Of a stretch of 64,000 bases of DNA, positions 16,406-56,389 are shown piece after piece (positions within the stretch are counted from its first letter, which is position 1; every line of letters starts with the position of its first letter). This stretch comes from Candidatus Wildermuthbacteria bacterium (GTDB taxonomy: Bacteria > Patescibacteriota > Minisyncoccia > Minisyncoccales > PEYH01). The stretch is from NCBI GenBank assembly GCA_037445205.1, contig JBBIKX010000001.1, forward strand, positions 8,767 to 72,766. The letters run 5' to 3'. The notes beneath the pieces are model-generated. The model searched no databases and had not been told where the DNA came from. It saw only the letters and a list, made by a program, of their open reading frames with translations. A program made the translations under genes and the position numbers.

Positions 16406-16430
16406 CGATTGGATCATATTATATTACTAT
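16402..16430 (+). promoter_or_regulatory. Candidate promoter of cassette A
   Basis: TTGACG(16402-16407, overlapping the map stop), 17-nt spacer, TACTAT(16425-16430). The predicted +1 falls at TCCC (16437). Confidence 0.4.
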
Positions 16431-16461
16431 AAAGAATCCCAAAAAAGATAAGGAGGTAGTG

Positions 16462-16839
16462 ATGAGAAGGATAACGCTTTTAGTAGGACTAGTTCCGCTT
16501 TCGCTCTGCACGGTTTTGGCGAGTCATTTCCTTGAGCTGCGCGGTTTCCATTACGAGCAAGCCGCTGTCTTATTTCTTCCTTTCTTAATATGGCTGACCT
16601 TATTGCGGCTTGTGGAAGGGTCAAGGGCTTGGATAGCTTGGATCGGATTTGGAACCGCCAGCGCATTGGGCGGTTTCGTTGTTTTTTCGGTGGTTCTGCA
16701 TCATCTTGCAGAGTGGAAAATAGGCCTTTGTCTCATCATGTTAGTTGCCTACTGTTTTGCCTGTGGGTTCGTTGGCCTGCTTGGTTACGATATCTGGAAG
16801 CTACAGCGCCACAATCGCGACAAGAAGAAAAAATCGTAA
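16462..16839 (+). CDS. Small integral membrane protein, about 4 TM helices, 125 aa, no recognised family
   Basis: AAGGAGGT at 16450-16457 lies 4 nt before the ATG at 16462. The ORF-track start at 16402 is an upstream in-frame extension. Sequence is hydrophobic (LLVGLVPLSLCTVLA..., GGFVVFSVVLHHL...) with GC-rich codons. Confidence 0.7.
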   Translation: MRRITLLVGLVPLSLCTVLASHFLELRGFHYEQAAVLFLPFLIWLTLLRLVEGSRAWIAWIGFGTASALGGFVVFSVVLHHLAEWKIGLCLIMLVAYCFACGFVGLLGYDIWKLQRHNRDKKKKS

Positions 16840-16882
16840 CAAAGCAGAGCCGGGCAGATGGGGAAATTGAGGTTGGGATGTC

Positions 16883-16917
16883 GGGGGCATAGCTAGGCCC
16901 CCTTTTTCTTTTTTTGA
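16883..16917 (+). terminator. Rho-independent terminator of cassette A
   Basis: GGGGGC(16883-16888) pairs with GCCCCC(16897-16902), followed by TTTTTCTTTTTTT. Confidence 0.7.
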
Positions 16918-16961
16918 AAAAGATGATAGAATAAAAAAGATAAAGAATTAATTTAAAAAAA

Positions 16962-17696
16962 ATGAAACTATCAATAATTATTCCCGCGTACAACGAAGAA
17001 AAAAGACTGCCCAAAACGCTTTTATCGATAGATAAGCATTTGAAAGGACAATCTTATGAATATGAGATTATTGTTGTAAGCGATGGTTCAAAAGACGACA
17101 CCGCAAAGATGGCTAATGATTTAAAGCCCAATGTTTCAGGCCTGAAAGTGATTGACAACAAGGAAAATCACGGCAAGGGATATGTCGTGAGGCAGGGAAT
17201 GCTTGAGGCAAGAGGAGATTATCGCATTTTCAGCGATGCTGATAATTCTACCACCATTGATCAGGTTGAAAGAATGTGGCCTTGGTTTGAAAAAGGATAC
17301 GACATCGTCATAGGATCAAGAGATGTTGAGGGTTCTGTTTTAAATCCTCCCCAGCCCTGGCTCAGAAAAGTTATCTTTGGAGGAGGGTTCAAGCTGGTCA
17401 GAAAATTTATAATCGGCCTTTGGAATATAAATGATACCCAGTGCGGCTTTAAATGCTTTACAAAAAAAGCCGCGGAAGACATTTTCTCTTCTTCAAAAAT
17501 TGACGGCTTTGCGTTTGATGTGGAAATACTGGTTTTGGCGAAGAGAATGAAGCATAAAATCAAAGAAATACCAATTACCTGGATAAATGACGTTGAGTCA
17601 AAAGTGAAATTAAAACATGTTTTCAAAATGTTTTTGGAAATGCTTAAATTGAGAAAGGATTTAGTTTTTGGAAAATATGGAAAAAGAAGAATCTAA
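16962..17696 (+). CDS. Family 2 glycosyltransferase (polyprenol-phosphate sugar transferase-like)
   Basis: Contains SIIIPAYNEE, VVSDGSKDDT and DADNS motifs. Confidence 0.85.
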   Translation: MKLSIIIPAYNEEKRLPKTLLSIDKHLKGQSYEYEIIVVSDGSKDDTAKMANDLKPNVSGLKVIDNKENHGKGYVVRQGMLEARGDYRIFSDADNSTTIDQVERMWPWFEKGYDIVIGSRDVEGSVLNPPQPWLRKVIFGGGFKLVRKFIIGLWNINDTQCGFKCFTKKAAEDIFSSSKIDGFAFDVEILVLAKRMKHKIKEIPITWINDVESKVKLKHVFKMFLEMLKLRKDLVFGKYGKRRI

Positions 17697-23215: not shown

Positions 23216-23218
23216 TGC

Positions 23219-41591: not shown

Positions 41592-41620
41592 TTGACCAAA
41601 ATATTCTTTTATGATATAAT
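41592..41620 (+). promoter_or_regulatory. Near-consensus sigma70 promoter of cassette B2
   Basis: TTGACC(41592-41597), 17-nt spacer, TATAAT(41615-41620). Confidence 0.6.
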
Positions 41621-41647
41621 TTGGATATCCTAAGGAGGTGATGCGTG

Positions 41648-41815
41648 ATGAAGGCGGGTATAGTGATTTTCCGGCATACACAAGTAGAAACGCTGCAGGC
41701 GACGGTTAACGCGTTTCTCAAGGTTCACGCTCCACATATGGAGAACCTTGAGCATCAGCTGGTAGTGACTCCAGACGGCACTATCGTCTTGACCCTGCTT
41801 TATCGGGCTAAGTAG
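41648..41815 (+). CDS. 55-aa soluble protein, unknown family
   Basis: Not in the ORF track (below 60 aa). AAGGAGGTG(41632-41640) lies 7 nt before the ATG. Translates to MKAGIVIFRHTQVETLQATVNAFLKVHAPHMENLEHQLVVTPDGTIVLTLLYRAK-stop. Confidence 0.6.
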   Translation: MKAGIVIFRHTQVETLQATVNAFLKVHAPHMENLEHQLVVTPDGTIVLTLLYRAK

Positions 41816-41837
41816 GGTTCGTAAGGAGGGAGGAACG

Positions 41838-42101
41838 ATGCGTAAGCTCTTTGCGGCGATTGTCGGACTCTACCGTCGGCTCTGGATGATTGAGCCCCGC
41901 CGTTTCAAACGGGGACAAATCATCCAGTTCGAAGACTGGCGCGATGGCATTAGAGTTGCCAAAGCCAGATACCTGGTTCTCGGCAATACACCCTCCGAGA
42001 AGAGGTACGTCCTGGAGGGTGTTGGGCCCGGCAACAAGGGGAGGCGCGAGCGCCTTCGCTTCCGCTGGGTTGACAAACACGCACATTTGGTGCGCGGCTG
42101 A
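41838..42101 (+). CDS. 87-aa basic protein, unknown family
   Basis: AAGGAGG(41823-41829) lies 8 nt before the ATG. The ORF is in the track and is followed by a terminator. Confidence 0.6.
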   Translation: MRKLFAAIVGLYRRLWMIEPRRFKRGQIIQFEDWRDGIRVAKARYLVLGNTPSEKRYVLEGVGPGNKGRRERLRFRWVDKHAHLVRG

Positions 42102-42111
42102 AATGCCTGTT

Positions 42112-42155
42112 CCGCCCGGGACTAAGGAGGAGTTCCGGGCGGTTGTTGTTTTTTG
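42112..42155 (+). terminator. Terminator of cassette B2
   Basis: CCGCCCGG(42112-42119) pairs with CCGGGCGG(42135-42142), followed by TTGTTGTTTTTT. Confidence 0.65.
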
Positions 42156-42204
42156 ATGAAGTTTCTGGTATCGTATCAAGTATCGCACATTGGGAGGTGG
42201 AACG

Positions 42205-42348
42205 GTGCACAAATGGGTAATCTTTGCGGTAGTGGTGATCCCAAGCATTCTCATCGGTTCCCTTATCTGCCTTTTCCAAGGAAAGGGCAGAAGAGTGTGG
42301 TCCTTCGCTAAGGGGAGAGTCTTTGCTTGGGCGGAAACGGATTGGTGA
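42205..42348 (+). CDS. 47-aa single-pass membrane peptide
   Basis: GGAGGT(42194-42199) lies about 5 nt before the GTG at 42205. Translates to (M)HKWVIFAVVVIPSILIGSLICLFQGKGRRVWSFAKGRVFAWAETDW-stop. Not in the ORF track (below 60 aa). Confidence 0.5.
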   Translation: MHKWVIFAVVVIPSILIGSLICLFQGKGRRVWSFAKGRVFAWAETDW

Positions 42349-42371: not shown

Positions 42372-42405
42372 AACCGGCGCATCTTCTGATGGGCCGGTTC
42401 ATCTT
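42372..42405 (+). terminator. Hairpin at the right edge of island B
   Basis: AACCGGC(42372-42378) pairs with GCCGGTT(42393-42399), followed by CATCTTTT. The T tract is weak. Confidence 0.4.
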
Positions 42406-42472
42406 TTAACAAAAAATGCTCCATTTTTTGATTTGATTTTTGTTTGTTTTTGAATTAGAATTAATATATAAA

Positions 42473-43528: not shown

Positions 43529-45595
43529 ATGATATTTTCGTATAACTGGATACAGTCATTTTTTACTGAAAAACTGCCCAAGCCTCAAGCATTGGCAGAG
43601 CTTTTGGAGCTTCACAGCTTTGAAGTAAAAGAGACAAAAAAAATCGGGAGAGATTTTTCGCTTGATATAGATATAATGCCGAACAGGCCCGACTGTTTTT
43701 CTCATTTGGGCATTGCAAGAGAATGTTCTGCCATTCTTGGATTAAAAACCAAGAATAATCAGCCAAAAATAGTTTCAGAATTTTCGTTTAAAAATCTCAA
43801 AAAGAAATCTAATCTGATTTCCGTGGAAATTAAAGATCAAAACGATTGTTTTAGATATACGGGGGCGTTTGTCGGGGGCATTAGTGTTGGTTTTTCTCCG
43901 AAATGGATGCAGCAAAGACTTTCCGTTTGCAATATTCAGCCGATTAACGGCATAGTTGATGTGGCGAACTACACAATGCTTGAAACGGGCCAGCCCATAC
44001 ATATTTTTGATTATGATAAAATCGCGGGCAAAAAAATTGTCGTAAGACGCGCCCGAAAAAACGAGAAAATTTCCGCTCTTGATGGGAAAGAATATAGCCT
44101 CGATCAGGATATTTTGGTAATTTCCGATGAAAAACAACCTTTGGCGATAGCGGGAATTAAAGGCGGAAATATCGCAGCAATTGACGAAAAAACAAAAAAC
44201 ATCTTTATTGAATCCGCGACTTTTGACCCTTTGGTTATAAGAAAGGCGTCTTATAAGCTGAAATTGAAAACAGATGCTTCTTTGAGATTTGAGCACGGGC
44301 TTGATTACAATATGACGGAATCGGCGATCAATAAAGCGATATCTTTTGTAAAAAAAACTTCGTCCAAGGATGCTAAAATTTTCAAAATAGATATTTTTGA
44401 GAAGTGTCCGCCCAAAAAAATTATAAAACTTGATTTTAACTTTGCAGAAAAACTCTTGGGCGTAAAAATTTCTCCAAAAAATACAGAGAACATATTAAAA
44501 ACGCTTGGAATAAAAGTTTTTAAAAAAACGAACAGCACTTTTGATTTAGAGATTCCCTTTGAAAGGGGCGATCTCTGCCTGCCCTCCGACATCGCGGAAG
44601 AAATTATAAGAATTTACGGATTAGAAAGAATAAAACCCACTTTGCCCCTTGGAGTTTTAGTCCCTCCCCAAAAAAACGACGAACTTTTTTGGGAAAACCA
44701 GGTTAAAAATTCTTTGAAAGAAATGAATTTCTTTGAAATTTACAATTATTCTTTCATCAAAAAAAACGATGGAAAAAATTATTTTTCTCTTGTTGAGCTT
44801 GAAAATCCGGCAAGCGAACAATTCCAATATCTCAGGCCAACGCTTTTAACGGGGCTTATAGAAAATTTAAAAATCAACACTCCAAATTACAAGGAAATAA
44901 AAATTTTTGAGCTGGAAAAAGTTTTCCAAAAATCAATCAGCGGAGAAATTTTTGAAAAGAAAATGTTGTCTGGCCTGATTTGGGAAAAAGGGGCAAAAAA
45001 GGGGAGATTGGAAAACGAATTCGCCCATATCAAGGGAATTTTAGACACGCTTTTGAATAATTTGGGGATAAGCGATTATTATTTTAACGAATACAAACCA
45101 AATCCTTCGGAGATGAAATTATCATTTTGGGATAAAAACCGCGTAGCAGAAATTTCTCTTATGAGCGGGAAAAAAATTGGATTTCTGGGAGCGATTTCTT
45201 TGGATATTCTTGGGGGCTATAAAATTGAGGAACCGGTTATGGCTTTTGACATAGATTTTGAAAAGCTTTGGACGGAGTGCAGCGAAGAGTGCGAATATCG
45301 TCCTGCCTCAAATTATCCCTGCGCTATACGCGATATTGCGGTTTTAGTTCCAAGAGAAACAAAAATAGGCGAGGTTTTAAATGCAATACAGAAAGCCGGC
45401 GGAGAAAAGATAAGAGATGTGGATTTGTTTGATTTCTACGAGGGGTCTCAAATTCCCCAAGGAAAGAAGAATCTTGCATTCCATATCATATTTCAATCAG
45501 ACGATAAAACATTAAGCGGCAAGGAAGTTGATTCATTGCATAAAAAAATAATCGGTTTTCTTGAGAAAAAAGAAGGATGGGCGGTGAGAAAATAA
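43529..45595 (+). CDS. pheT: Phenylalanine--tRNA ligase beta subunit (short form)
   Basis: 688 aa. Has B3/4 and B5 region motifs (IMPNRPDCFSHLGIARE) and follows pheS. Confidence 0.92.
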   Translation: MIFSYNWIQSFFTEKLPKPQALAELLELHSFEVKETKKIGRDFSLDIDIMPNRPDCFSHLGIARECSAILGLKTKNNQPKIVSEFSFKNLKKKSNLISVEIKDQNDCFRYTGAFVGGISVGFSPKWMQQRLSVCNIQPINGIVDVANYTMLETGQPIHIFDYDKIAGKKIVVRRARKNEKISALDGKEYSLDQDILVISDEKQPLAIAGIKGGNIAAIDEKTKNIFIESATFDPLVIRKASYKLKLKTDASLRFEHGLDYNMTESAINKAISFVKKTSSKDAKIFKIDIFEKCPPKKIIKLDFNFAEKLLGVKISPKNTENILKTLGIKVFKKTNSTFDLEIPFERGDLCLPSDIAEEIIRIYGLERIKPTLPLGVLVPPQKNDELFWENQVKNSLKEMNFFEIYNYSFIKKNDGKNYFSLVELENPASEQFQYLRPTLLTGLIENLKINTPNYKEIKIFELEKVFQKSISGEIFEKKMLSGLIWEKGAKKGRLENEFAHIKGILDTLLNNLGISDYYFNEYKPNPSEMKLSFWDKNRVAEISLMSGKKIGFLGAISLDILGGYKIEEPVMAFDIDFEKLWTECSEECEYRPASNYPCAIRDIAVLVPRETKIGEVLNAIQKAGGEKIRDVDLFDFYEGSQIPQGKKNLAFHIIFQSDDKTLSGKEVDSLHKKIIGFLEKKEGWAVRK

Positions 45596-45631
45596 CTTCA
45601 AAATTAAGTTTTGATAATAAAAATATAATAT

Positions 45632-47557
45632 ATGACAAAAAAAGATAAGGCCTCGGAGGGTTATAGTGCAAAAGATATTTTTGTATTGAAAGGATTGGAG
45701 CCGGTGCGCAAAAGACCGGCGATGTATATTGGCTCAACGGGGCCAGACGGGCTTCATCATCTAATTTGGGAATGTTTGGACAATGCCATTGATGAGGCGA
45801 TGGGAGGATACGCTACAGAAATTGAAGTGGTTTTATTGCCCAAAAACCGGGTAAAGGTTACTGACAACGGCCGCGGGATTCCTGTTGATATTCATCCCCA
45901 GACCAAAAAATCTGCCCTTGAAACGGTGATGACGACCCTTCATGCAGGCGCAAAATTTGACAGGAAAGTATACCAAATTTCAGGGGGACTGCATGGAGTC
46001 GGAGTTTCTGTCGTATGCGCTCTTTCTTCCTGGATGAGGGTTGAAGTATGCCGTCAGGGACATCGCCATTCCCAAGAATACGAGAAAGGCAAGCCCCAGA
46101 CGAAAGTGAAAAAAGAAGGAACTTGCAGACAATCCGGCACCGCTGTAATTTTTGATGCCGACCCGGAAATTTTTTCTCAAATCAAATATGACAGAAAAAG
46201 GGTCATTTCTCATTTGAGGAGACAGGCATATCTTACAAAAGGCGTGAGAATAAAATTCAAGGATTTGCGCGAAGGAGAATTTGAATACACTTTTTATTTT
46301 GAAGGCGGGCTCCGTTCCTACATAAAGTTTTTAATCGGCAACAATACTCCTCTTCATCAGGGCGTTTTTTACGTCCAAAAGGAAAAGGACGGAATTATTT
46401 CAGAGGCCGTATTCCAGTATACGCAGGAAAGAGAGGGCTGGGAGGAGGGTTTCGCGAATAACATTTATACAGTTGAGGGAGGTAGCCATTTAACCGGCTT
46501 TCGCTCCGCCTTAACGCGCAGCCTGAATGATTACGCCAAAAAGAATAACTACATAAAACCAGAAGAAGATGGTTTTTCCGGCCAAGACGTGAGAGAGGGT
46601 TTGAACGCGGCTGTTTCCGTGAAAATTAAAGAACCGCAGTTTGAGGGCCAGACAAAAACAAAACTTGGAAATCCCGAGGCAAAATCGGCGGTAGAGTCAG
46701 TTGTGGGAGAGGTGCTCAGCGATTTTTTGGAGAGAAATCCCCAAGATGCCCGGTTAATTGTGGAAAATTGTCTTTTAGCCGCAAAAGCGCGTCAGGCGGC
46801 AAGGGCGGCGCGCCAGACAATCCTTCGCAAGGGTATTTTAGATGGATTGAGCCTTCCCGGAAAACTGGCCGATTGCATTATGCGCAATCCGAGCCAAGCA
46901 GAGCTTTTTATCGTAGAGGGAGAGAGCGCGGGCGGCTCTGCAAAAATGGGAAGAGATAGGAAATTTCAGGCGATCCTCCCCCTTAGGGGAAAAATTTTAA
47001 ATGTTGAAAGGGCGAGGCTTGATAAAATTTTGTCATCTGAAGAAATCAAAGCGCTTGTAATTGCATTAGGCACTGCCATTTCTCAGGATTTTGAAATAGA
47101 CAAGATAAGGTATCATAGGATTATCATTATGACCGATGCGGATGTAGATGGCGCTCATATAAGAACTCTTCTTTTAACGCTTTTTTACAGATATTTTAAG
47201 CCGGTGATAGATATGGGATATCTTTATATCGCCCAGCCTCCGCTTTATAAAATCCAATCGGGAAAGATTGTAAAATATGCCTACACAGAGGGTCAGAAAG
47301 AAAAATTCATAAAAGAGATCCAGAAAGGAGAAGTGAAAAATATTAATATACAAAGGTATAAAGGTTTGGGAGAAATGAACCCCGATCAGCTCTGGGAAAC
47401 GACAATGAATCCTTCCCAGAGAATGTTAATGCGGGTAGCAATTGAAGAGGCCAAAGAAGCCGATAAGATATTTGATATTCTGATGGGCAAGGAGGTTTTT
47501 CCAAGAAAAAAATTCATTCAGGCGCACGCCAAAAGCGTCAAAAACTTAGATATTTAA
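45632..47557 (+). CDS. gyrB: DNA gyrase subunit B
   Basis: Contains LEPVRKRPAMYIGS, EGESAGGSAKMGRDR and IMTDADVDGAHI. Confidence 0.97.
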   Translation: MTKKDKASEGYSAKDIFVLKGLEPVRKRPAMYIGSTGPDGLHHLIWECLDNAIDEAMGGYATEIEVVLLPKNRVKVTDNGRGIPVDIHPQTKKSALETVMTTLHAGAKFDRKVYQISGGLHGVGVSVVCALSSWMRVEVCRQGHRHSQEYEKGKPQTKVKKEGTCRQSGTAVIFDADPEIFSQIKYDRKRVISHLRRQAYLTKGVRIKFKDLREGEFEYTFYFEGGLRSYIKFLIGNNTPLHQGVFYVQKEKDGIISEAVFQYTQEREGWEEGFANNIYTVEGGSHLTGFRSALTRSLNDYAKKNNYIKPEEDGFSGQDVREGLNAAVSVKIKEPQFEGQTKTKLGNPEAKSAVESVVGEVLSDFLERNPQDARLIVENCLLAAKARQAARAARQTILRKGILDGLSLPGKLADCIMRNPSQAELFIVEGESAGGSAKMGRDRKFQAILPLRGKILNVERARLDKILSSEEIKALVIALGTAISQDFEIDKIRYHRIIIMTDADVDGAHIRTLLLTLFYRYFKPVIDMGYLYIAQPPLYKIQSGKIVKYAYTEGQKEKFIKEIQKGEVKNINIQRYKGLGEMNPDQLWETTMNPSQRMLMRVAIEEAKEADKIFDILMGKEVFPRKKFIQAHAKSVKNLDI

Positions 47558-47561
47558 GGTT

Positions 47562-49058
47562 ATGAGCTATATTGTTAAAATAATATTTTTTTGGAAAAGA
47601 ATTTATTTGCTGATAATGATTATCTGTTTTTCTTTATTCGCAGAGTTTGCGTTGGCAGAAGAAATTAAACAAGAAATATATGTCCCCAAAATAGAAATAG
47701 GCGATGGAATTACTCATTTAGCCAGAAAAACAATAATTGAATTTATAAAAAGAGAGGGTATTGACCCCAGAATTACGGTTCCGCACTTGGTTTATATTGA
47801 GGATCGTCTTGCGATAGAAAAAGGAAAGAAAACTATTTATTTAAAAGATTTTTCGCCAATAAATTTTTCCAGTGAAGAAATATCTAGGGCGATAAATAAA
47901 GCGTTGCTGCTTAACGAAAAGCAGATTTTAAGCTTAGAGCACTACGCTCTGTCCGTAAGCGCATATTTTGACTTAATAGTTAATAATAAGTTGCGGTTTA
48001 ATATAAAAAAAATTTCCGATTATAATTTGCCCCAGATAACCGGATTAGGATATCGCTTTATTGTTTACAAAGACAATATTTTTTTATTAGACATAGAGAA
48101 AAAAATAATGATTTTAGATATAGCGAATTCTAAAACCCCGAAGTTAATTGCCGAATTTTCTCCACCCCCTGGGGCTCGATGTAATAATCTTGCCTCTCTA
48201 CAAGACAATTTGATCGCTCTTTTTTGCTGGAATTCTTTTTCCGAGAGAATAATCTATTTTCTCGAGGTAGACAATCCTTTTGATTTGAAAATTATTTCAG
48301 AGTATAAGTTCGGCAAGGGAAATCTTATGGGAAATGCCGCTATAAAAGATTCTTTGCTTTTTTTGAGCGATTATAATCTATTTGAGGCAATAGACGTAGG
48401 CGATATTAAAACACCAAAATTAATTTTTAAACATGAATTTGATGATAGCTTTGAGCCGGTGAATATAACAAAAAAAGATAATCTTTTAATAGTCGGCTAT
48501 GATAAAAACTCTCCCCAGATCTTATGGTTGTTTGATGCCAAAAATTTTGAAATAAAAGAATTAGAAATACAAAACGAGAAAGCGATAAAACATCGCTATT
48601 TTTGGAGAAGCAGGGAAGGAAAAAACTGGCTCTTGGGTTCGCCCAGTATTTATTATTATTTTCCTTCATTGCTATTTATCAACTCCAAGGATATTTCTTT
48701 GGGAAAAAATAGCGGAATCTTGAACGTTAAGCCCTTTGAATTTCAATGTCCTTTATTAGAAAATCCAATTTTTGACTATGATAGCAAAGATGATGTCGTA
48801 TATCTTTATGTTCGCAGCCGCTATTTGAGAGACCCGACAAACAATATAACAGAATGTTGTGATGAGAATCTTTATATTTTGGATTTTAATGCTATTGGAG
48901 AAGAGCCACTAAAAGAGATTATAAATATCGGAAAATCCCCAGTTCTATTTAAAAATATGAACCTACAAAAGAGTAGATTATTTACTGTAACCGACTCCTT
49001 AACGACTTCTTGGCAAAAACTGGAAATTTATCAATTAATAAAAACTATCCATCCTTGA
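47562..49058 (+). CDS. Hypothetical secreted or anchored repeat protein (LVIVD/beta-propeller-like repeats, tentative)
   Basis: 498 aa with an N-terminal TM/signal segment. Recurrent D[IV].....PKLI motifs. Confidence 0.55.
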   Translation: MSYIVKIIFFWKRIYLLIMIICFSLFAEFALAEEIKQEIYVPKIEIGDGITHLARKTIIEFIKREGIDPRITVPHLVYIEDRLAIEKGKKTIYLKDFSPINFSSEEISRAINKALLLNEKQILSLEHYALSVSAYFDLIVNNKLRFNIKKISDYNLPQITGLGYRFIVYKDNIFLLDIEKKIMILDIANSKTPKLIAEFSPPPGARCNNLASLQDNLIALFCWNSFSERIIYFLEVDNPFDLKIISEYKFGKGNLMGNAAIKDSLLFLSDYNLFEAIDVGDIKTPKLIFKHEFDDSFEPVNITKKDNLLIVGYDKNSPQILWLFDAKNFEIKELEIQNEKAIKHRYFWRSREGKNWLLGSPSIYYYFPSLLFINSKDISLGKNSGILNVKPFEFQCPLLENPIFDYDSKDDVVYLYVRSRYLRDPTNNITECCDENLYILDFNAIGEEPLKEIINIGKSPVLFKNMNLQKSRLFTVTDSLTTSWQKLEIYQLIKTIHP

Positions 49059-49163
49059 CAGGGAATAAAAGAGGGATTATTCTAAAGCAATAAGCCCCAA
49101 AAAAGGGCTTTTAAAAAATGCGTTTATCGTCCTAAATTCCCCCTAGATTCTTTTAATAAAAAT

Positions 49164-49364
49164 ATGAATTTCTCATCTTTTCCCAAAAAGATCCTTAATT
49201 ATTTCAAAGAGGTCAAAACAGAAACAAAAAAAGTCAATTGGCCTACAAAAAAAGAAGCGACTAAATACACCTTAATTGTTATTGCTGTTATTGTTGTTGT
49301 TTCTGTCTTTCTGGGCTTTTTGGACATTATTTTTACCCTTATTTTAGATAAATTCATTTTTTAA
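49164..49364 (+). CDS. secE: Preprotein translocase subunit SecE
   Basis: 66 aa. Contains VKTETKKVNWPTKKE plus a C-terminal TM helix; precedes nusG. Confidence 0.88.
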   Translation: MNFSSFPKKILNYFKEVKTETKKVNWPTKKEATKYTLIVIAVIVVVSVFLGFLDIIFTLILDKFIF

Positions 49365-49367
49365 ACT

Positions 49368-49913
49368 ATGCCCAAGCAACAATTGCCCGAACAGCGAAAA
49401 TGGTACGCAATCCACACATATTCGGGATATGAAGATGCGGTTTCAAGAAATCTCAAGCAGAGGATTGAGTCTTTGGGAATGGAAGATAAAATTTTCAGCG
49501 TTCTGGTTCCCAAAGAAAAAAAAATTAAAATTAAGAACGGAAAACGATATTCCATTGAAGAAAAAATTTATCCGGGATATGTTTTGGTAGAAATGATTGT
49601 CACAGACGATTCTTGGTATGTGGTCAGAAACACTCCCAATGTTACGGGATTCGTCGGCGCTGGCACTACGCCCGTGCCTCTTTCCGAAGAGGAAATATCG
49701 GTTCTGAAAAATAGGATGGAGGGAGAGACGCCCAAATACCAGATAAGTTTTAAAATAAGCGACCATGTAAAAATTATTGATGGCCCTTTCAAAGATTACG
49801 AAGGAAAGGTTTCAGAAATAAATCAAGACGAGGGAAAAATTAAGGTAATGATAAATCTATTTGGAAGAGATACGCCAGTTGAATTAGATTCCCTGCAAGC
49901 CAAAAAAATATGA
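49368..49913 (+). CDS. nusG: Transcription antitermination factor NusG
   Basis: Contains WYAIHTYSGYE, and a KOW domain (GPFKDYEGKVSEIN). Confidence 0.95.
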   Translation: MPKQQLPEQRKWYAIHTYSGYEDAVSRNLKQRIESLGMEDKIFSVLVPKEKKIKIKNGKRYSIEEKIYPGYVLVEMIVTDDSWYVVRNTPNVTGFVGAGTTPVPLSEEEISVLKNRMEGETPKYQISFKISDHVKIIDGPFKDYEGKVSEINQDEGKIKVMINLFGRDTPVELDSLQAKKI

Positions 49914-49990
49914 TTCCCGCCTTCGGCAGGACCCCGTCTTTCTCTAACGAGAAATTATGATTCCCGCCTTCGGCAGGACCCCGTCTTTCT
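49909..49990 (+). repeat. Perfect 35-bp direct repeat, two copies with a 47-bp period
   Basis: TATGATTCCCGCCTTCGGCAGGACCCCGTCTTTCT occurs at 49909-49943 and 49956-49990. Copy 1 overlaps the nusG stop codon. Confidence 0.9.
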
Positions 49991-50006
49991 AAAAACTTTA
50001 AAAATT

Positions 50007-50429
50007 ATGAAAAAAATACAAACAAAAGTTAAACTCCATATCGCCGCCGCTCAGGCTAATCCCGCCCCTCCTATCGGTCCCGCCCTTGCGCAACACGGAA
50101 TAAACATCGCTGACTTTTGCCAGAAGTTTAATGCCGCAACTAAAAATCTGGCAGGTTATCAGATTCCTGTTGAAATATCAATATACGAGGACAGGACTTT
50201 TAATTTTAAAATAAAACAGCCCCTTGTCAGCGATCTTTTAAAAAAGGCAGCGGGCATTGAGAAAGGGTCGGGCGAGCCGAATAAAATTAAGGCTGGAATA
50301 ATCACCAAAGAGCAGTTAAAAGAGATTGCCCAGAAGAAATTAGACGATTTAAACACAAAAAACATTGATGCCGCAATGAAAATTATTGAAGGACAGGCAA
50401 GATCAATGGGAATTGAAATTAAAAATTAG
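50007..50429 (+). CDS. rplK: 50S ribosomal protein L11
   Basis: Contains [21 protein letters not shown]. Confidence 0.96.
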
Positions 50430-50434
50430 TTTTT

Positions 50435-51265
50435 ATGACCCAGTTTGACGAGCAGTATAAACAAGCAATCTGGGAAGTAATGAACGGAGGTACGGAAATT
50501 TACAGCGCAAGACAGAAATGTCATACCAAAGCTTTTCCGGGCATAACCTTTAATTTAGACAAAGGATTTCCTCTGCTTACTTTGAGAAAAATTCCTGTTA
50601 AAATTTTTGTCGCTGAACAATTCTGGTTTTTGATGGGCGAAAAAGACCCCAAGGTTTTTTTAAAAAAATTTACTGCCATATGGGATGATTTTGCCGATCA
50701 AAATGGATTAGTTTTGGGCGCTTATGGCTATCGCTGGAGGAAGCATTTTGGGAAAGATCAAATAGCCAATTTGTTGAGCCTTCTTTCCCAGGATCCAAGT
50801 TCGCGTCACGGAGTTGTGGTGGCGTGGGATCCCTCAGACGACATCAGGACCCTTGATTCAAAAAAGAAAAACGTTCCCTGCCCCTATACTTTCACTGTTA
50901 ATATTATCGGCAATAAGCTTCATATTCATATTATTATAAGGTCAAACGATATGATTCTTGGCTGTCCTCACGATATTGCGGGATTTGCGCTTTTGCAAAG
51001 GATTTTGGCCGGAAAGCTGGGGGTAAAGACAGGAAAGCTTACTTGTTCCATCAGCAATGCCCACATTTACGATATTCATTACAATGCGGCATGGGAGATG
51101 CTTGAAAGAAAAAACAATCATCCCGAAATTATTTTGGACGCAGAAGAAAATTGGTTTGACAGGGCGGAGAAGGGAGATGAATCGCTTGCTCAAGAAATTA
51201 TAGATACCATTGCAAGACAATATAGCCCGATGAATCCCATTAAGGGCTTAAAAATTATTTTATAA
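50435..51265 (+). CDS. ThyA-family pyrimidine-nucleotide C5 methylase/hydroxymethylase homologue, with Asp at the Asn177-equivalent position
   Basis: Aligns without gaps to E. coli ThyA over [27 protein letters not shown] against KLHIHIIIRSNDMILGCPHDIAGFALL. The catalytic Cys (VPCP, codon 149) and the AHIY motif are present. Confidence 0.8.
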   Translation: MTQFDEQYKQAIWEVMNGGTEIYSARQKCHTKAFPGITFNLDKGFPLLTLRKIPVKIFVAEQFWFLMGEKDPKVFLKKFTAIWDDFADQNGLVLGAYGYRWRKHFGKDQIANLLSLLSQDPSSRHGVVVAWDPSDDIRTLDSKKKNVPCPYTFTVNIIGNKLHIHIIIRSNDMILGCPHDIAGFALLQRILAGKLGVKTGKLTCSISNAHIYDIHYNAAWEMLERKNNHPEIILDAEENWFDRAEKGDESLAQEIIDTIARQYSPMNPIKGLKIIL

Positions 51266-51270
51266 ATTAT

Positions 51271-51777
51271 ATGAAAATAATTTTAGTAATGGCAATCACG
51301 CTTGATGGGAAAATTGCCAAGACAAAAGACCATTTTCCAAACTGGACGTCAAAGGAGGATAAAAACTTCTTTGCCAAAATTTCAAAAAAGCACAAGGTCG
51401 TCTTAATGGGAAAGAACACTTTTGATACCTTCAAAAAACCGCTCAAAGACAGATTAAATGTGGTTTTTACAAATAAAAAAAATCTGGCGAAGATAAAAAA
51501 TGTAATGTGGGTTTCGGGCAAAATAAGTCCGATTTTAAAAAAGCTGGAAAAGAGGGGATATAAATCGGCGGTTCTTGGCGGAGGAGCAATGTTGAACGCA
51601 GAGTTCTTAAAGGAAAAATTGATAGATGAGGTTATAGTCACAATCAATCCCAAAATCTTTGGGCGAGGGATATCTTTGTTTGAAGGAGATTTTGATATTG
51701 ATTTAAAACTTTTAAAAGTGGAAAATATTAATAAAGATACGATAGCTCTTCGTTATAGGCCGGTGTTTTGTAATTAA
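51271..51777 (+). CDS. Dihydrofolate-reductase-like protein (RibD C-terminal domain family)
   Basis: Contains MKIILVMAITLDGKIA, VVLMGKNTF and VLGGGAMLNAEFL. Confidence 0.75.
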   Translation: MKIILVMAITLDGKIAKTKDHFPNWTSKEDKNFFAKISKKHKVVLMGKNTFDTFKKPLKDRLNVVFTNKKNLAKIKNVMWVSGKISPILKKLEKRGYKSAVLGGGAMLNAEFLKEKLIDEVIVTINPKIFGRGISLFEGDFDIDLKLLKVENINKDTIALRYRPVFCN

Positions 51778-51786
51778 ATTAAAAAT

Positions 51787-52443
51787 ATGCCCCTATCAAA
51801 ACCTGAAATCATAAAATCCATCCAAGAAGAGAAAATTAAATTTGAACCGTCTCTTGATAAATTTCAGCTTCAGCCCCATTCCATTGATTTGCGGCTTGGT
51901 TGGAATTTTTATATACCAAAAAACTGGGCAATCACGGAAAAGGGAAGGGTTGGCGTAAGTATTGATTATTTGGACACGCAATCCCAAAAAGACAACTTTG
52001 ATTTAATCAAATTAAAACCCGGTCAGTATTTTGAAATTTTGCCAAAAGAATTCATTATTGCTTCGACAATGGAAAAGGTGGTTATAGAAGCCGATAAGCT
52101 AATGGCATTGTTGTATCCCAGAAGCTCTTTTACAAGAAAAGGGTTGTTCATTGCCAGCGGAATCGTTGATGTAAAATACAGCGGATATCTGGCTCTTTCA
52201 GTGATAAACAATACAGAAACCCAGATTATAAGGCTATATCCGGGCGAAAGAGTGTGCCAGCTGGTCTTTCATTTTTTAAGCTCTGCTTTGTCGCCAGAAG
52301 AGGCAATTAAGCACGGGATAAGCGATTCCAAATATTTAAAAGCGGCTCCTTATTCTCTTGAGGCAAAAAGCGACAATCAGGAAGAAATAGATCTAATCAG
52401 ATTTGGAAAGATTGGCGAATTGAAAGAAAAATTCAAATTATAA
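51787..52443 (+). CDS. dcd: dCTP deaminase family protein
   Basis: Contains SIDLRLG, GIVDVKYSGYLALSVIN and VCQLVF. Confidence 0.8.
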   Translation: MPLSKPEIIKSIQEEKIKFEPSLDKFQLQPHSIDLRLGWNFYIPKNWAITEKGRVGVSIDYLDTQSQKDNFDLIKLKPGQYFEILPKEFIIASTMEKVVIEADKLMALLYPRSSFTRKGLFIASGIVDVKYSGYLALSVINNTETQIIRLYPGERVCQLVFHFLSSALSPEEAIKHGISDSKYLKAAPYSLEAKSDNQEEIDLIRFGKIGELKEKFKL

Positions 52444-52449
52444 AAGCCG

Positions 52450-52908
52450 ATGGGAAAAGAAGGAATAAAATATCCCTATTTGCCGGAAGCAAGAGAAATA
52501 AAATTTGTTTCAGAAAAAAATATTTTTATCAGGGAGGCGAAGAAAATTTGCAAAAAGAAAGGATGCATTGCGCATCCAACAGGGGCGGTTTTGGTCAAAA
52601 AGAATAAAATCATAGGGAAGGGGACTAACGCCGCAAAAAAAATAAAAGATTGTCCAAGGGCTTTGAAAAAAAGCAAGACCGGCCAAGATTATCATTTATG
52701 CAAAAAAATTTGCCTGCAGGAAGGACACGCAGAAGCGATGGCGATTAAAAGCGCAAAAGAAAAAAAGGAGAAAATCAGAGGAGCAGATTTATATCTTTAT
52801 GGCCATTGGTGGTGCTGTAAAGATTGTTGGGATAAAATCATCAAAGAAGGGATAGGAGAGGTTTATTTAATTGAAAACGCTTTTGATAAATTTCATAAGC
52901 GAATATGA
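52450..52908 (+). CDS. Deoxycytidylate (dCMP)/cytidine deaminase zinc-binding family
   Basis: Contains the HAEAMAI and CCKDC zinc ligands. Confidence 0.8.
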   Translation: MGKEGIKYPYLPEAREIKFVSEKNIFIREAKKICKKKGCIAHPTGAVLVKKNKIIGKGTNAAKKIKDCPRALKKSKTGQDYHLCKKICLQEGHAEAMAIKSAKEKKEKIRGADLYLYGHWWCCKDCWDKIIKEGIGEVYLIENAFDKFHKRI

Positions 52909-53540
52909 AAAAAAATCCTTATCTTGGAAAATTCATAGTTTTTGAAGGGCTGGACGGGTCCGGACAAAGCACCCAAGCATCAAAACTGGTGGATTATTTC
53001 AATGAAAAAAACCAGATATTTAAATTTGGGCATACCGGAGCGCATCTTACCAAAGAGCCGACATCCGGAATTATTGGAGGATTAATCAGGGGCCAGCTAT
53101 CTTTTGACTGGAAATCTTCTCAAGAATGCCTCCAGCTTTTATTTGCGGCAGATCGGGCGTACCATCTAGAAAAGGAGATTTTGCCTCTTTTGGAAATGGG
53201 CGTAACGGTGGTTTGCGATCGTTATTTTTTTTCTTCTTGCGCCTTCGGGGCGCTGGAGGCCGATCAGGAATGGCTTTTAAAAATCAATGAAAAGTTTCTT
53301 TTGCCTGATTTGATATTCCTGCTTGCTGTTTCTCCCAAAATCTGCATTGAAAGAATAAAAAGAAATCGTTTTGAAATAAATCTTTTTGAAAACGAAGAAA
53401 TATTAAAAAATGTGTGGGAGAAATACTTGATATTGGCACATCAAAATAAAAACACGCATATTATAGACGGGGAACGGCCGATCAATGAGATTTTTGAGGA
53501 GATTAAAGAAATAACTGATAGGAAATTTAACCAACGATGA
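52905..53540 (+). CDS. tmk: Thymidylate (dTMP) kinase
   Basis: P-loop FIVFEGLDGSGQSTQ, and the DRY motif (CDRYFFSS). Confidence 0.9.
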   Translation: MKKNPYLGKFIVFEGLDGSGQSTQASKLVDYFNEKNQIFKFGHTGAHLTKEPTSGIIGGLIRGQLSFDWKSSQECLQLLFAADRAYHLEKEILPLLEMGVTVVCDRYFFSSCAFGALEADQEWLLKINEKFLLPDLIFLLAVSPKICIERIKRNRFEINLFENEEILKNVWEKYLILAHQNKNTHIIDGERPINEIFEEIKEITDRKFNQR

Positions 53541-55024
53541 TAAATTCATCAAAAAAATATATTCCCGTCATCGGGCTTGAAATACATACGGAATTAAAAA
53601 CTAATTCCAAAATGTTTTGCGGGTGCAAAAACGATTCGCAGGAAAAAGAAGCGAATTTGAATATTTGTCCTGTTTGCATGGGTCATCCCGGCACTCTCCC
53701 CGTTATAAACAAAACAGCGATTCGTTTTGTCATAAAAACAGGGATTGCTCTGAATTGTAAAATTACAAAAGAGTCGCGATTTGAAAGAAAAAATTATTTT
53801 TATCCCGATCTTCCAAAAGGATATCAGATTTCTCAATACAAAGAGCCGTTTTGTTTTAATGGCTTTTTAAAAATAAATAATAAAAAAATAAGAATTAGAA
53901 GGGTTCATTTGGAAGAAGATACTGCCCGCCTGATACACTCCAAAAATGGATATTCGCTGATTGATTTCAACCGCGCCGGCATTCCTTTAATGGAGCTTGT
54001 AACGGAGCCGGACATAGAATCTTCTAAAGAGGCATCAGACTTCGCAAAAAAACTTCAGTTGATCCTGAGATATTTAAATGTTTCCAGCGCTGACATGGAA
54101 AAAGGGCAATTGAGAGTGGAGGCAAATATTTCATTAATAAACGCAAATTTTAAAGCAAAAAACGCAAAACTAGGAACAAAGGTGGAGATCAAAAATTTAA
54201 ATTCGTTTAGGGCAGTTGAGAGGGCGATAGAATATGAAATAGAAAGGCAAAAGGAGTTACTATTAAATGATGAGAGGGTGGCGCAGGAAACAAGAGGATG
54301 GGATCCTCAATCAGAAAGAACCTTTCCCCAGAGAGAAAAAGAAGAGGCGCATGATTACCGCTACTTTCCAGAGCCGGATTTGCCCCAGATTTATATAAAA
54401 AAAGACTATCTGGAGGCGATAAAAAAAGGAATTCCCGAACTTCCCGATCAAAAAATAAAAAGATTAAAAGAAGAATTTTTTGTTAACGAACAATCAGCCC
54501 AGATTCTTGTCTCTAACAGAGATTTAAGCGAGTATTTTGAAAAATCGGCAAGCGAGCTTTTAAGATGGTCAAAAGACAAAAGATTAGATCAAAAGAGCCA
54601 AAAAGAATTGATACAGAGCGCCGCCAACTATCTTTTGACAGATTTACTCGGCTGTCTTTCAGGGAAAGAATTTTCAGAAAAAGATTTTCCCATAACGCCT
54701 GAAAATTTCGGAGAGTTTATCGCTCTTGTCCGCGATAAAAAATTCACAAGCAAAATGGCAAAAATTCTTTTAGGAGAGATGTTTGATTCCGGCCAAGATC
54801 CCTCAACCATAATAAAAAAAAGAGGATTAATCCAGACGGACAACGAAGATGAGATTAAAAAAATAGTGCAAAAAATAATTTCATCAAATCCTCGGGCATT
54901 TGAAGATTATAAAAAAGGAAAAGAAAATGCTCTTCAATTCATGATTGGACAAATGATGAAAGAAACTAAAGGCACTATAAATCCCCAGATGGCAAAGAAA
55001 GCGTTGATTGATTTTTTAAAATAA
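53537..55024 (+). CDS. gatB: Glu/Asp-tRNA amidotransferase subunit B
   Basis: Contains IGLEIHTELKT, VCMGHPGTLPVINK and RVEANISL. Confidence 0.95.
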   Translation: MINSSKKYIPVIGLEIHTELKTNSKMFCGCKNDSQEKEANLNICPVCMGHPGTLPVINKTAIRFVIKTGIALNCKITKESRFERKNYFYPDLPKGYQISQYKEPFCFNGFLKINNKKIRIRRVHLEEDTARLIHSKNGYSLIDFNRAGIPLMELVTEPDIESSKEASDFAKKLQLILRYLNVSSADMEKGQLRVEANISLINANFKAKNAKLGTKVEIKNLNSFRAVERAIEYEIERQKELLLNDERVAQETRGWDPQSERTFPQREKEEAHDYRYFPEPDLPQIYIKKDYLEAIKKGIPELPDQKIKRLKEEFFVNEQSAQILVSNRDLSEYFEKSASELLRWSKDKRLDQKSQKELIQSAANYLLTDLLGCLSGKEFSEKDFPITPENFGEFIALVRDKKFTSKMAKILLGEMFDSGQDPSTIIKKRGLIQTDNEDEIKKIVQKIISSNPRAFEDYKKGKENALQFMIGQMMKETKGTINPQMAKKALIDFLK

Positions 55025-55032
55025 TATATAAT
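55004..55032 (+). promoter_or_regulatory. Near-consensus promoter of cassette C
   Basis: TTGATT(55004-55009, inside the last gatB codons), 17-nt spacer, TATAAT(55027-55032). Confidence 0.55.
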
Positions 55033-55135
55033 ACTTAAAATCCAGAATAAGGAGGTGGTCGCCGGGATACAGTCCAAAGAGGGCGAGGGGCGTTTTCGGA
55101 AGCAAAACCGGATCTTTCTTGCGAAAGGAGCATCG

Positions 55136-55333
55136 ATGCCAGCAGTAAATCTTGTTAACGTGGCGAGGTCATTGCCGGACGAAGAGGCGGAGAGGCTTTT
55201 GCTCATCGAGCAAAGCAATCCTGATTGCCTCAGGGCGCTTTTTGCGGTCGTTCTGAGCGCCGGAACGCTGGAAAAAGCTGTTCCTCTGATCCAACGAGTT
55301 CTTGCTGGCGCACCCTTGTTTCCGGGCGGATGA
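55136..55333 (+). CDS. 65-aa helical protein, unknown family (a 92-aa form from the GTG at 55055 is possible)
   Basis: AAAGGAG(55124-55130) lies 5 nt before the ATG at 55136. The same frame is open from 55055, but that GTG sits inside an SD (AAGGAGGTG 55049-55057). Confidence 0.5.
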   Translation: MPAVNLVNVARSLPDEEAERLLLIEQSNPDCLRALFAVVLSAGTLEKAVPLIQRVLAGAPLFPGG

Positions 55334-56341
55334 AACTGGATGGGGCTCCCTTCGGGAGCCCCCTTGTTTTGTTAAAAAAGTATTTATTATTTTTCTGGCT
55401 TTTTTTTTATCCCCAACCCAATTTACTCTTTTGTCTTTTTTAAACCAGGTTATTTGTCTTTTGGCGTAACTTTCAATTGCTTTTTGGAGCATTCCGACCA
55501 TTTCATCATAGCCAATTTTTTTTTGAAGATAGCAAGCAATATATCTGTATTCCAATCCAAATTCTTCAAGCCGTTTCCAGGAAACGCCGTCTTTTCTTAG
55601 CGCTCTGACCTCTTTTATCATCCCCTGATTTAATCTTTTGTATAGCCGTTTTCTGATTAAATTTTTTAGCTCTTTTTTTTCTTTCTTGATGCCGATAATG
55701 AGCAAATCAAACAATTGGCTTTTTTTTATGACGGGTACCGGTTTTTTTGATTTCAAAACTATTTCAATTGCCCGGATTAATCTGCGGGGATTTTTTTTAT
55801 CAATAATTTTTGCCCGCCGCGGGTCCAGTTTTTTTAACATTTGATAAAGCTGGTTTGGCAATTTTTTTTCCAGTTTTTTCCTTAATTTCCAGTCCGGCGG
55901 AATTTTTGGGATGACGATTCCGTCAACGACTGATTGAATATAGAATCCGGTGCCGCCGCAAAGAATGGGCAGCTTATTTCTCTTATGGATTTCCCTTATT
56001 TTTTTTAATGCCATTTTTTGATACTGGGCGACCGTAAATTTCCTTTTTGGAGAAGCAACATCCAAAAGATGATGTTGGATGCCTCTATAAAGATATGACT
56101 GTTTTGAAATTTGAGATTTAGGACTTGGAGTTTGTTTAGAAATTAGAAATTTGGAATTAGAAATTTTATCTCGTGGAACCTTCCCGGTTCCGATATCCAT
56201 TTTGCGATAAACCTGACGGGAATCGGCCGAAATCACCTCTCCGTTAAAATTTTTTGCCAGTGCTACCGCCAAATCGCTTTTTCCCGAAGCAGTGGGTCCA
56301 AGAATAACTAACAATATTTTTCGGTCCGTTTTTTTTGACAT
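55169..56341 (-). CDS. miaA: tRNA dimethylallyltransferase MiaA. The conserved core is 55364-56341; the ORF then runs 64 further codons antisense into cassette C.
   Basis: P-loop LGPTASGKS, plus DSRQVY, GGTGFY and AKRQITWF. The homologous end (KIINTFLTKQ) coincides with the composition boundary at about 55364. Confidence 0.88.
   Translation of the reverse strand: MSKKTDRKILLVILGPTASGKSDLAVALAKNFNGEVISADSRQVYRKMDIGTGKVPRDKISNSKFLISKQTPSPKSQISKQSYLYRGIQHHLLDVASPKRKFTVAQYQKMALKKIREIHKRNKLPILCGGTGFYIQSVVDGIVIPKIPPDWKLRKKLEKKLPNQLYQMLKKLDPRRAKIIDKKNPRRLIRAIEIVLKSKKPVPVIKKSQLFDLLIIGIKKEKKELKNLIRKRLYKRLNQGMIKEVRALRKDGVSWKRLEEFGLEYRYIACYLQKKIGYDEMVGMLQKAIESYAKRQITWFKKDKRVNWVGDKKKARKIINTFLTKQGGSRREPHPVSSARKQGCASKNSLDQRNSFFQRSGAQNDRKKRPEAIRIALLDEQKPLRLFVRQ
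55342..55372 (+). terminator. Terminator of cassette C
   Basis: GGGGCTCCC(55342-55350) pairs with GGGAGCCCC(55354-55362), followed by CTTGTTTTGTT. Confidence 0.7.
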
Positions 56342-56363
56342 AATCCCAAGAATATTATATCAT
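56335..56363 (+). promoter_or_regulatory. Candidate promoter of cassette D
   Basis: TTGACA(56335-56340, overlapping the miaA start codon on the other strand), 17-nt spacer, TATCAT(56358-56363). The predicted +1 falls at TCCC (56370). Confidence 0.4.
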
Positions 56364-56389
56364 TATAAATCCCAAAAAGGAGGTGGTTA

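Follow-up and report, generated by a model that had tools for sequence, protein, structure and literature searches.

Long Shine-Dalgarno sequences lead a class of GC-rich genes embedded in an otherwise Shine-Dalgarno-less Parcubacteria chromosome segment

We analysed a 64,000-nucleotide stretch of DNA from a Candidatus Wildermuthbacteria bacterium (contig JBBIKX010000001.1; hereafter the window, with positions counted from its first letter), an AT-rich (about 39% GC) Patescibacteria/Parcubacteria chromosome segment that carries a ribosomal-protein cluster, secY, adk, map and aminoacyl-tRNA synthetase genes. Embedded in this backbone are eight GC-rich open reading frames (ORFs) in six transcription units: cassettes A, B1, B2 (ORFs B2a, B2b and B2c), C and D, and a methyltransferase unit. 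The original prediction had proposed that similar promoter-leader strings stand upstream of A (ATATTATATTACTATAAAGAATCCCAAAAAAGATAAGGAGGT, 16416-16457, forward strand), D (ATATTATATCATTATAAATCCCAAAAAGGAGGT, 56352-56384, forward strand), C (55024-55057), B2 (41615-41640) and, as a weaker member, B1 (AACCAAAAGGAGGTG, 40570-40584), and that such a leader on otherwise unrelated ORFs suggests a common origin or a common mobilisation or expression mechanism. All of these strings are present exactly as quoted. We conclude that they are probably signals that start the transcription and translation of a distinct class of genes rather than remains of a vector, a class set apart from the backbone by both its base composition and its Shine-Dalgarno (SD) sequences.

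The 79 ORFs of the window comprise the eight GC-rich ORFs (GC at least 0.48 and third-position GC, GC3, at least 0.50) and 71 backbone genes. In a 300-nt scan we detected islands of 48-58% GC at 16.5-16.9, 40.5-42.4, 55.0-55.4, 56.4-56.8 and 62.0-62.9 kb, corresponding to cassettes A, B1/B2, C and D and to the methyltransferase gene, which had not been listed originally. GC3 in the GC-rich ORFs is 0.50-0.68, as against about 0.38. Since an independent Logan assembly and a related NCBI metagenome-assembled genome (MAG) carry the same cassettes, they are not assembly chimeras. Upstream of each of the eight GC-rich ORFs, 6-12 nt match the canonical SD, TAAGGAGGTGAT, at a distance of 4-9 nt from the start codon. 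GGAGG occurs in the last 22 nt upstream of none of the 71 backbone genes, the upstream regions of which are A/T-rich and SD-less (e.g. aaaataaataaATG); presence of the motif at similar frequency upstream of ordinary backbone genes had been set beforehand as an outcome that would speak against a shared leader. The sequence AAGGAGGTG occurs four times in the 64 kb, always at cassettes, with 0.31 occurrences expected. When we compared the k-mers of six cassette upstream regions with those of 21 promoter-bearing backbone upstream regions, only SD k-mers discriminated between the two sets (6/6 versus 0/21, p = 3e-6). The SD layer is class-specific. The predicted folding of the start region (positions -25 to +35) also separates the classes, with a mean of -11.5 kcal/mol for the cassettes versus -4.4 kcal/mol (standard deviation 2.4) for the backbone (p = 7e-6).

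We observed the same association in relatives. By MiaA comparison, the nearest species representatives are Patescibacteria MAGs (labelled Nealsonbacteria, Pacebacteria and others) with only 55-60% identity. In 45 related Parcubacteria miaA loci, 32 unique ORFs (median 89 amino acids) that are SD-led, here meaning an SD of 7 nt or more, have a GC content 4.2% above that of their own locus, as compared with -0.2% for the 237 ORFs without an SD in the same loci (p = 5e-7, and p = 0.001 among ORFs of no more than 150 amino acids). Therefore, the pairing of SD and extra GC is a property of this bacterial group and not of this window. The gap between gatB and miaA, which is the site of cassette C, holds between zero and five small SD-led ORFs across ~38 related Parcubacteria loci, and many of these ORFs have TTGACA-17-TATAAT promoters. 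Small SD-led ORFs divergent from miaA, that is, in the position of cassette D, are found on the reverse strand in two further loci (L007, 2396-2665; L119, 10-288); these are homologous to each other (...HGFTLTYPQGWDE..CLLCL...) and unrelated to D.

Cassette B1 can be followed over the longest distance. Homologues of its protein (54-72% amino acid identity) lie at the same site, just before pheS, in four relatives (loci L087-L090) in which the backbone proteins have diverged to a similar extent (pheS 61%, pheT 45%, gatA 69%, gyrB 86%). Each time, the homologue is GC-richer than its own genome (0.50/0.38, 0.45/0.355 and 0.39/0.33), and all of the homologues are SD-led (GGAGGTGAGATT, AGAGGTGAGATT, GGGGGTGGGATG and GGAGGTGGGACA); for the homologue with a GGGGGTG box, G-U wobble would keep the pairing. 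Both features of B1, the SD and the excess of GC, are thus retained even among relatives in which pheT identity is as low as 45%. In a close relative, GCA_964383555.1 (loci L002 and L003), A and D are at the same sites with nearly identical leaders: the predicted 5' untranslated region (UTR) of A has a single change relative to L002, and the D leader is conserved in L003 and L004 except for GGAGGT to GGAGAT. The C site of this relative holds a strongly diverged homologue.

Five of the units (A, B1, B2, C and D) are autonomous, each with a near-consensus sigma-70 promoter, an A-rich leader of 20-27 nt and a strong intrinsic terminator. Their promoters follow the pattern TTGAnn, a 16-17 bp spacer and TAnnnT, and those of D and B2 share the top promoter score of the window (11/12). 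The backbone genes tuf, infA, secE and thrS have the same promoter consensus, and promoter-like hexamer pairs in the window number 49, versus 42.6 (standard deviation 6.9) in shuffles. Because this total is not above that of the shuffles, a promoter match alone is weak evidence, and the promoter layer, its -10 part included, is generic. The five leaders begin at or near A-TCC (AACC in B1), the +1 position being predicted. In terminator scans of the window, the cassette hairpins at 16883-16902, 42112-42142, 55342-55362 and 56696-56721 were the top matches. Of the plan that C and B2 were thought to have in common with A and D, the SD part is class-specific, the -10 part is shared with ordinary genes, the ATCC at the predicted +1 is suggestive only, and the SD-like box of C has no usable start codon. 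A common expression mechanism is supported: an SD 4-9 nt before the start codon, in combination with a short A-rich leader, is found in cassettes only.

We considered whether the leaders act as folded RNAs. For none of the six leaders was the predicted fold more stable than in shuffled sequence (z-scores from -0.3 to +1.7; of the shuffle controls, those for A and D are informative). The A leader has the least structure, with 195 of its 200 shuffles reaching an equal or better fold. At gathering score, Rfam finds only three tRNAs in the window, and we rejected structured RNAs as an explanation of the cassettes; for C in particular, an E-value scan gives only a meaningless RNase MRP match. Pairing of the 5'-UCC with the GGA of the SD appears in every minimum free energy fold (in B1, CC with GG only); at 2-3 bp and negligible energy, it was dropped.

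We propose that backbone mRNAs would be initiated without an SD on unstructured, A/U-rich start regions. The GC-rich ORFs, with more structured start regions, would depend on SD/anti-SD pairing, and the A-rich spacer before the SD would keep the box accessible. Because GC-rich starts would need this pairing, unrelated genes would converge on one leader plan and be held to it by selection, as for B1; on this model, a strong promoter, an open A-rich leader and a long SD would recur on unrelated genes and be kept over long evolutionary time. More speculatively, the lineage may run two initiation regimes, an SD-independent one for core genes and an extended-SD mode for GC-rich, fast-evolving, self-contained accessory genes; we regard this wider reading as a tentative possibility.

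Several observations weigh against this explanation. Neither the window nor any of 170 loci retrieved from relatives contains a 16S rRNA gene in which an anti-SD could be read, and an anti-SD motif is present in only 48% of Parcubacteria and is mostly missing in the group that lacks uL1 (Tsurumaki et al. 2022, PMC9297842). The third-position GC excess persists at distances where synonymous sites ought to have saturated, and SD pairing leaves it unexplained; it could reflect biased gene conversion at recombination-prone islands, selection on mRNA or repeated exchange. Evolution of A, D and the methyltransferase is near-neutral (ratio of nonsynonymous to synonymous substitution rates, dN/dS, of 0.65-1.08), and some of these may be decaying acquisitions rather than maintained genes; in comparisons of the two close relatives, dN/dS is 0.70 for ORF A, 1.08 for ORF D and 0.65 for the methyltransferase, while map, the glycosyltransferase gene, miaA, gatB, thrS, gyrB and tmk lie between 0.05 and 0.19. 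The C box, TAAGGAGGTG, and the following ~45 nt are kept in the relative, with frame-breaking indels, whereas ORF C can no longer be aligned although the backbone around it is ~97% identical. A box that is conserved without a start codon may have another role. Transcription start sites are predicted only, and the gene and start-codon calls come from our own heuristic.

The likeness between the A and D leaders goes beyond the SD. The alignment with two indels and two mismatches that had been described is correct, and the two leaders have the exact skeleton ATATTATAT-NNN-TATAAA-N(0/3)-TCCCAAAAA-N(0/6)-GGAGGT. We aligned the 50-nt upstream regions of the 79 ORFs pairwise (Smith-Waterman). A-D scored 40, the first of 3081 pairs (next 31; mean 14.7, standard deviation 3.5), exceeding all 2485 backbone pairs; C-D and A-C scored 35 and 30, against a backbone maximum of 31. 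We infer that 22 of the C-D points and 18 of the A-C points come from the shared 11- and 9-nt SD blocks. B1 and B2 scored 14-23 with the other cassettes, no more than the SD accounts for; thus, B1 belongs to the group by its SD, and also has a promoter (TTGAAA-16-TAGATT), and any closer likeness of its leader to that of D or the others falls away. With the SD removed, A-D still scored 33, a value reached by 8 of 200,000 pairs simulated under an order-2 Markov null built from the intergenic DNA of the window (P ~4e-5 per pair). The corrected P is ~6e-4 for 15 cassette pairs and ~0.12 for all 3081 pairs; the similarity is significant for the pre-defined set of cassettes and only marginal if all gene pairs are counted. 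It survives an AT-rich background model, failure against which had likewise been named in advance as counting against the leader. This additional likeness probably stems from a cis-element common to A and D or from one promoter-leader that was copied locally; a single copying event, an operator present in both and convergent evolution are each possible. A common origin, which had been suggested for the whole set, is possible at most for these two leaders.

What, then, might have produced such leaders other than selection for SD-dependent initiation? The A and D leaders, and perhaps that of C, could be copies of one mobile promoter-leader of ~40 nt recruited by recombination, an idea that we consider possible but doubtful. 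It would account for the A-D score, the top one of all pairs and still 33 without the SD, for two leaders that are almost invariant in the relative, and for their presence on ORFs that are unrelated: the cassette proteins are mutually unrelated, and BLASTP gave no match when we asked whether A and D are diverged paralogues. However, 31 of the 42 columns aligned between A and D are identical, whereas mobile promoters are defined by 80% identity or more over at least 50 nt (PMC3488235), and the P is ~0.12 when the correction covers every gene pair. With respect to the block that A and D share, their -35 hexamers are shifted by 3 nt, so that the -10 hexamers with the best match (TACTAT in A, TATCAT in D) are other than the aligned ones. 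Part of the AT-rich block of D also serves, on the opposite strand, as the predicted promoter of miaA. No further copies of the leader were found in the window; the strict A/D pattern had no matches in JGI metagenomes, a scan proposed with the original prediction, and a looser pattern had two matches in IMG/VR, both inside one coding sequence. Recent horizontal acquisition from one GC-richer, SD-using donor or vector (a phage, a plasmid or an integron-like element), with a vector-derived leader, we regard as unlikely. The foreign-like composition, the orphan status of A and D (each has one relative in 5.8 billion protein clusters, and an exhaustive HMMER search of A returned only an 83%-identity relative and one marginal match), their near-neutral evolution, the swap of C for a very divergent allele in a ~97% identical backbone and the position of the B locus beside a tRNA cluster with an att-like repeat all fit an acquisition. 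Against it, B1 is syntenic, has diverged in step with the backbone and keeps its SD and GC excess; A and D are at the same sites in the relative, where the C site holds a diverged homologue; and the promoters of the cassettes overlap the ends of host genes (the map stop codon in A, the miaA start codon in D). We found no direct or inverted repeats bracketing A, B2, C or D, the inverted repeats at the cassettes being terminator stems or weak AT-rich matches without attC-like arms; no recombinase or integrase Pfam in the called-gene lists of syntenic relatives; and no viral relatives of A, D or B1 in IMG/VR. PADLOC and PHROGs gave no relevant match to mobile or defence genes. A phage origin was rejected, as was an integron gene cassette, since the units have their own promoters and no attC-like site, array or integrase was seen. 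Common mobilisation is not supported.

It is still less probable that the cassettes form one regulon in which ATCC(C)AA and TTGGAT elements at the +1 and in the spacer are operators for a common regulator. Such elements recur as the palindrome GGATATCC in B2, two copies of AATCCCAA and the direct repeat AATCCCAAGAA / AATCCCAAAAA in D, and, in A, TTGGAT together with ATCCCAA. In two distant relatives (L087 and L088), the B1 leader carries GAATCC and, as in A, AAAGAATCCAAG, and in A, D, C and B2 the ATCC starts 5-7 nt after the -10 hexamer (its first base being the 6th to 8th position). However, the ATCC k-mer is present in 4/6 cassette and 4/21 backbone upstream regions (p = 0.044, uncorrected for multiple k-mers), the pattern was found post hoc, the half-site arrangement differs among cassettes, the motif reads AACC in the window's own B1 and ATCT in the C of the relative, and it is missing from more distant relatives. 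We take the ATCC near the +1 as suggestive only, a lead and not a finding. Least probable of all, and very improbable in our judgement, is that nothing here is class-specific and the leaders resemble each other by chance as low-complexity AT-rich DNA. Promoter-like pairs are indeed not above shuffles, and ATATTATAT and the A-runs are low-complexity; yet the SD dichotomy is absolute (8/8 versus 0/71) and is reproduced in relatives, and A-D lies above all of the backbone pairs and all but 8 of the 200,000 simulated ones. Start signals of a distinct gene class remain our preferred reading of the strings.

Cassette A lies on the forward strand downstream of map. Its promoter (16402-16430, TTGACG-17-TACTAT, 9/12) has a -35 hexamer that overlaps the map stop codon. 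The predicted 5' UTR (16436-16461) consists of ATCC at 16436-39, an A-run and the SD TAAGGAGGT at 16449-57, 4 nt before the ATG of ORF A (16462-16839; 125 amino acids, four hydrophobic segments, GC 0.48), an orphan. The intrinsic terminator (16883-16915) is GGGGGC..GCCCCC followed by a T-run. The A-run and SD (16441-16456) are complementary at 13 of 16 positions to the terminator and T-tail of the same unit (16899-16914), the 3' end of the mRNA resembling an anti-SD.

Cassette D, also on the forward strand, has its promoter (TTGACA-17-TATCAT, 11/12) at 56335-56363, with a -35 hexamer overlapping the miaA start codon. Its leader (56369-56389) has ATCC at 56369-72, an A-run and the SD AAGGAGGTG at 56377-85, 4 nt before the ATG of ORF D (56390-56683; 97 amino acids, three hydrophobic segments, GC 0.51), likewise an orphan; the terminator (56696-56730) is GAGGGC..GCCCTC and a T-run. 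The A-run and SD at 56374-56383 are complementary at 10 of 10 positions to the 3' half and T-tail of the D terminator at 56718-56727 (AAAAAGGAGG / CCTCCTTTTT). In both A and D, this complementarity may just follow from an A-run and a G-rich box facing a C-rich stem and a U-tail. Between 56335 and 56390, two promoters overlap back to back: the predicted reverse-strand promoter of miaA (TTAACC-17-TATAAT, 10/12) is the reverse complement of the SD/leader region of D.

The B locus holds two units in tandem on the forward strand. The B1 promoter (40534-40561, TTGAAA-16-TAGATT, 9/12) has a TG before the -10, and the same layout is found in L087, L088 and L090; the leader (40570-40589) consists of AACC-AAAA and the SD AAGGAGGTGA at 40576-85, 4 nt before the GTG. 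ORF B1 (40590-41588; 332 amino acids, GC 0.52) encodes a YegS/DAGK-family lipid kinase and runs through its own terminator-like hairpin at 41523-41568 (CCCCAACCAGAA...TTCTGGTTGGGG and a T-run); the L090 homologue ends immediately ahead of the corresponding hairpin. The B2 promoter (41592-41620, TTGACC-17-TATAAT, 11/12) has a TG extension, and in its leader (41627-41647) the ATCC at 41627-30 lies inside the palindrome GGATATCC and the SD is the full TAAGGAGGTGAT at 41631-42. The B2 ORF block (41648-42348) has three SD-led ORFs, B2a (41648-41815, 55 amino acids), B2b (41838-42101, 87 amino acids) and B2c (42205-42348, 47 amino acids, transmembrane, conserved in L087 and L088), with an internal hairpin at 42112-42142; the terminal terminator (42372-42408) is AACCGGC..GCCGGTT (hairpin 42372-42399) with a T-rich tail. 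The internal hairpin, between B2b and B2c, has an SD-like TAAGGAGGA box in its loop. In L087 (9505-9600) and L088 (1354-1450), the same box is followed by a conserved hydrophobic mini-ORF of ~24-31 codons (LGGxLCFWLxFAIIQ...), which starts with TTG and lies immediately before the B2c homologue, and in L087 the stop codon of the mini-ORF overlaps the B2c start (TAATG). Near this locus, a perfect 19-nt direct repeat (AATCCCCTTGGGTCCGCAA) occurs at 39235-39253 and 40465-40483, the first copy being the 3' end of a tRNA-Asp gene (39176-39251). The repeats bracket an AT-rich gene for a 355-residue membrane protein (39306-40373) that has no counterpart in L087 or L089. The arrangement resembles an att-site duplication left by integration at the tRNA, with no integrase inside; it is the only att-like repeat in the area, and it flanks this gene and not a cassette.

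The promoter of cassette C (55004-55032, TTGATT-17-TATAAT, 10/12; forward strand) has its -35 hexamer inside the end of gatB. The leader (55040-55135) begins with ATCC at 55040-43 and continues with the SD-like box TAAGGAGGTG at 55048-57, from which no start codon lies at a workable distance, and a 78-nt stretch; the likely start of ORF C is at 55136, with its own AAGGAG at 55125-30. ORF C (55136-55333) has 65 amino acids and a GC of 0.55, and is strongly diverged in the close relative. When aligned with L003 (~8660-8705), the 5' part of the leader (55048-55095) is conserved as GGAGGTGGT..CGG.AT.CAGTC..AAGA.GGCGAGG despite 1-nt indels; it lacks a start codon, matches nothing in Rfam and folds no better than shuffled sequence. 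The terminator (55342-55372) is GGGGCTCCC-TTC-GGGAGCCCC, and the opposite-strand miaA ORF extends across it. This reverse-strand miaA ORF has 390 amino acids in the window versus 317 in the close relative, the extra part being 55169-55390: its last ~73 codons run through the C terminator hairpin and antisense to ORF C, and the divergence point of the two genomes falls within the 3' end of miaA. The methyltransferase unit (61984-62872, reverse strand) consists of an ORF for an S-adenosylmethionine (SAM) methyltransferase (61984-62859; 291 amino acids, GC 0.49) with the SD AAGGAGGT 6 nt before its ATG; it lies downstream of dnaE and has no promoter of its own.

Aligning the window (15231-17236 and 44981-62943) with loci L002 and L003 of the MAG GCA_964383555.1, we observed a mosaic of blocks with 97-99% or ~75% identity; for example, map and the glycosyltransferase gene are 74-83% identical, cassette A and its flanks 92-97%, and the region 57.4-59.9 kb ~75%. 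Such a pattern indicates recombination between diverged lineages, or mixed-strain bins. Between gyrB and secE, an ORF of 498 amino acids (47562-49058, GC 0.32) is missing from L003, L087 and L088, and gave no Pfam-independent hits in PADLOC or PHROGs. In the region 50007-51265, the genes directly behind rplK (which encodes L11) are thyA, folA, dcd and others of nucleotide metabolism, and not rplA, rplJ and rplL, an order consistent with the Parcubacteria group that lacks uL1 (PMC9297842).

The individual units resemble the canonical Bacillota type, as in the extended SDs of Staphylococcus aureus (PMC13009471), in their -35/-10 promoters with a 16-17 bp spacer, in SDs of up to 12 nt that are complementary to the canonical 16S 3' tail at 4-9 nt spacing, and in their GC-rich hairpins with a T-run. 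However, only ~10% of genes have such signals here, their users are GC-rich, mostly small and lineage-specific, and the remaining genes are SD-less. At the genome level, the pattern seems to us most to resemble that of Bacteroidia, in which ribosomes are SD-blind with a sequestered anti-SD, and few SD-led genes (rpsU) are read by ribosomes lacking bS21 (PMC7797042, PMC9976891). In common with Bacteroidia, SDs are lacking genome-wide, a small set of genes has a strong, extended SD, and the bulk of genes have A-rich, unstructured leaders; the present case differs in that it belongs to another phylum and that the SD-led genes are accessory and orphan genes rather than rpsU or prfB. Parcubacteria without the anti-SD and uL1 (Tsurumaki et al. 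2022, PMC9297842) also have SD-less housekeeping genes and an rplK that is not followed by rplA, but a minority class of SD-led genes was not described there. Like putative mobile promoters (Matus-Garcia et al. 2012, PMC3488235), A and D have similar non-coding sequence upstream of non-homologous genes, but this is a single pair over ~33-42 nt with two indels and no other copies found. Integron cassettes are likewise small, compositionally odd ORFs of unrelated function between conserved genes, whereas the units here are scattered, each with its own promoter and terminator, and B1 has diverged in place.

The promoter, SD and terminator are each textbook elements; what is unusual is that long canonical SDs are confined to one compositionally distinct class in an otherwise SD-free genome of the Candidate Phyla Radiation (CPR). 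A strict limitation of SDs to a GC-rich accessory class in an SD-free Parcubacteria genome is not described in the literature that we searched. If the host ribosome has an anti-SD, these genes would be a clean natural case of SD use tied to mRNA structure, and the SD would be a practical marker of accessory genes. If the 16S rRNA lacks or hides the anti-SD, the AAGGAGGTG boxes would need a new explanation, such as a specialised ribosome subpopulation (cf. Bacteroidia ribosomes lacking bS21) or a non-ribosomal function. Either way, a few named genes now allow a direct test of SD use in anti-SD-poor Parcubacteria, and gene callers that apply a single ribosome binding site model to each genome will place starts wrongly in such organisms. 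Should the lineage indeed run two initiation regimes, the synonymous GC excess would be a maintained property of the class and not a trace of recent transfer.

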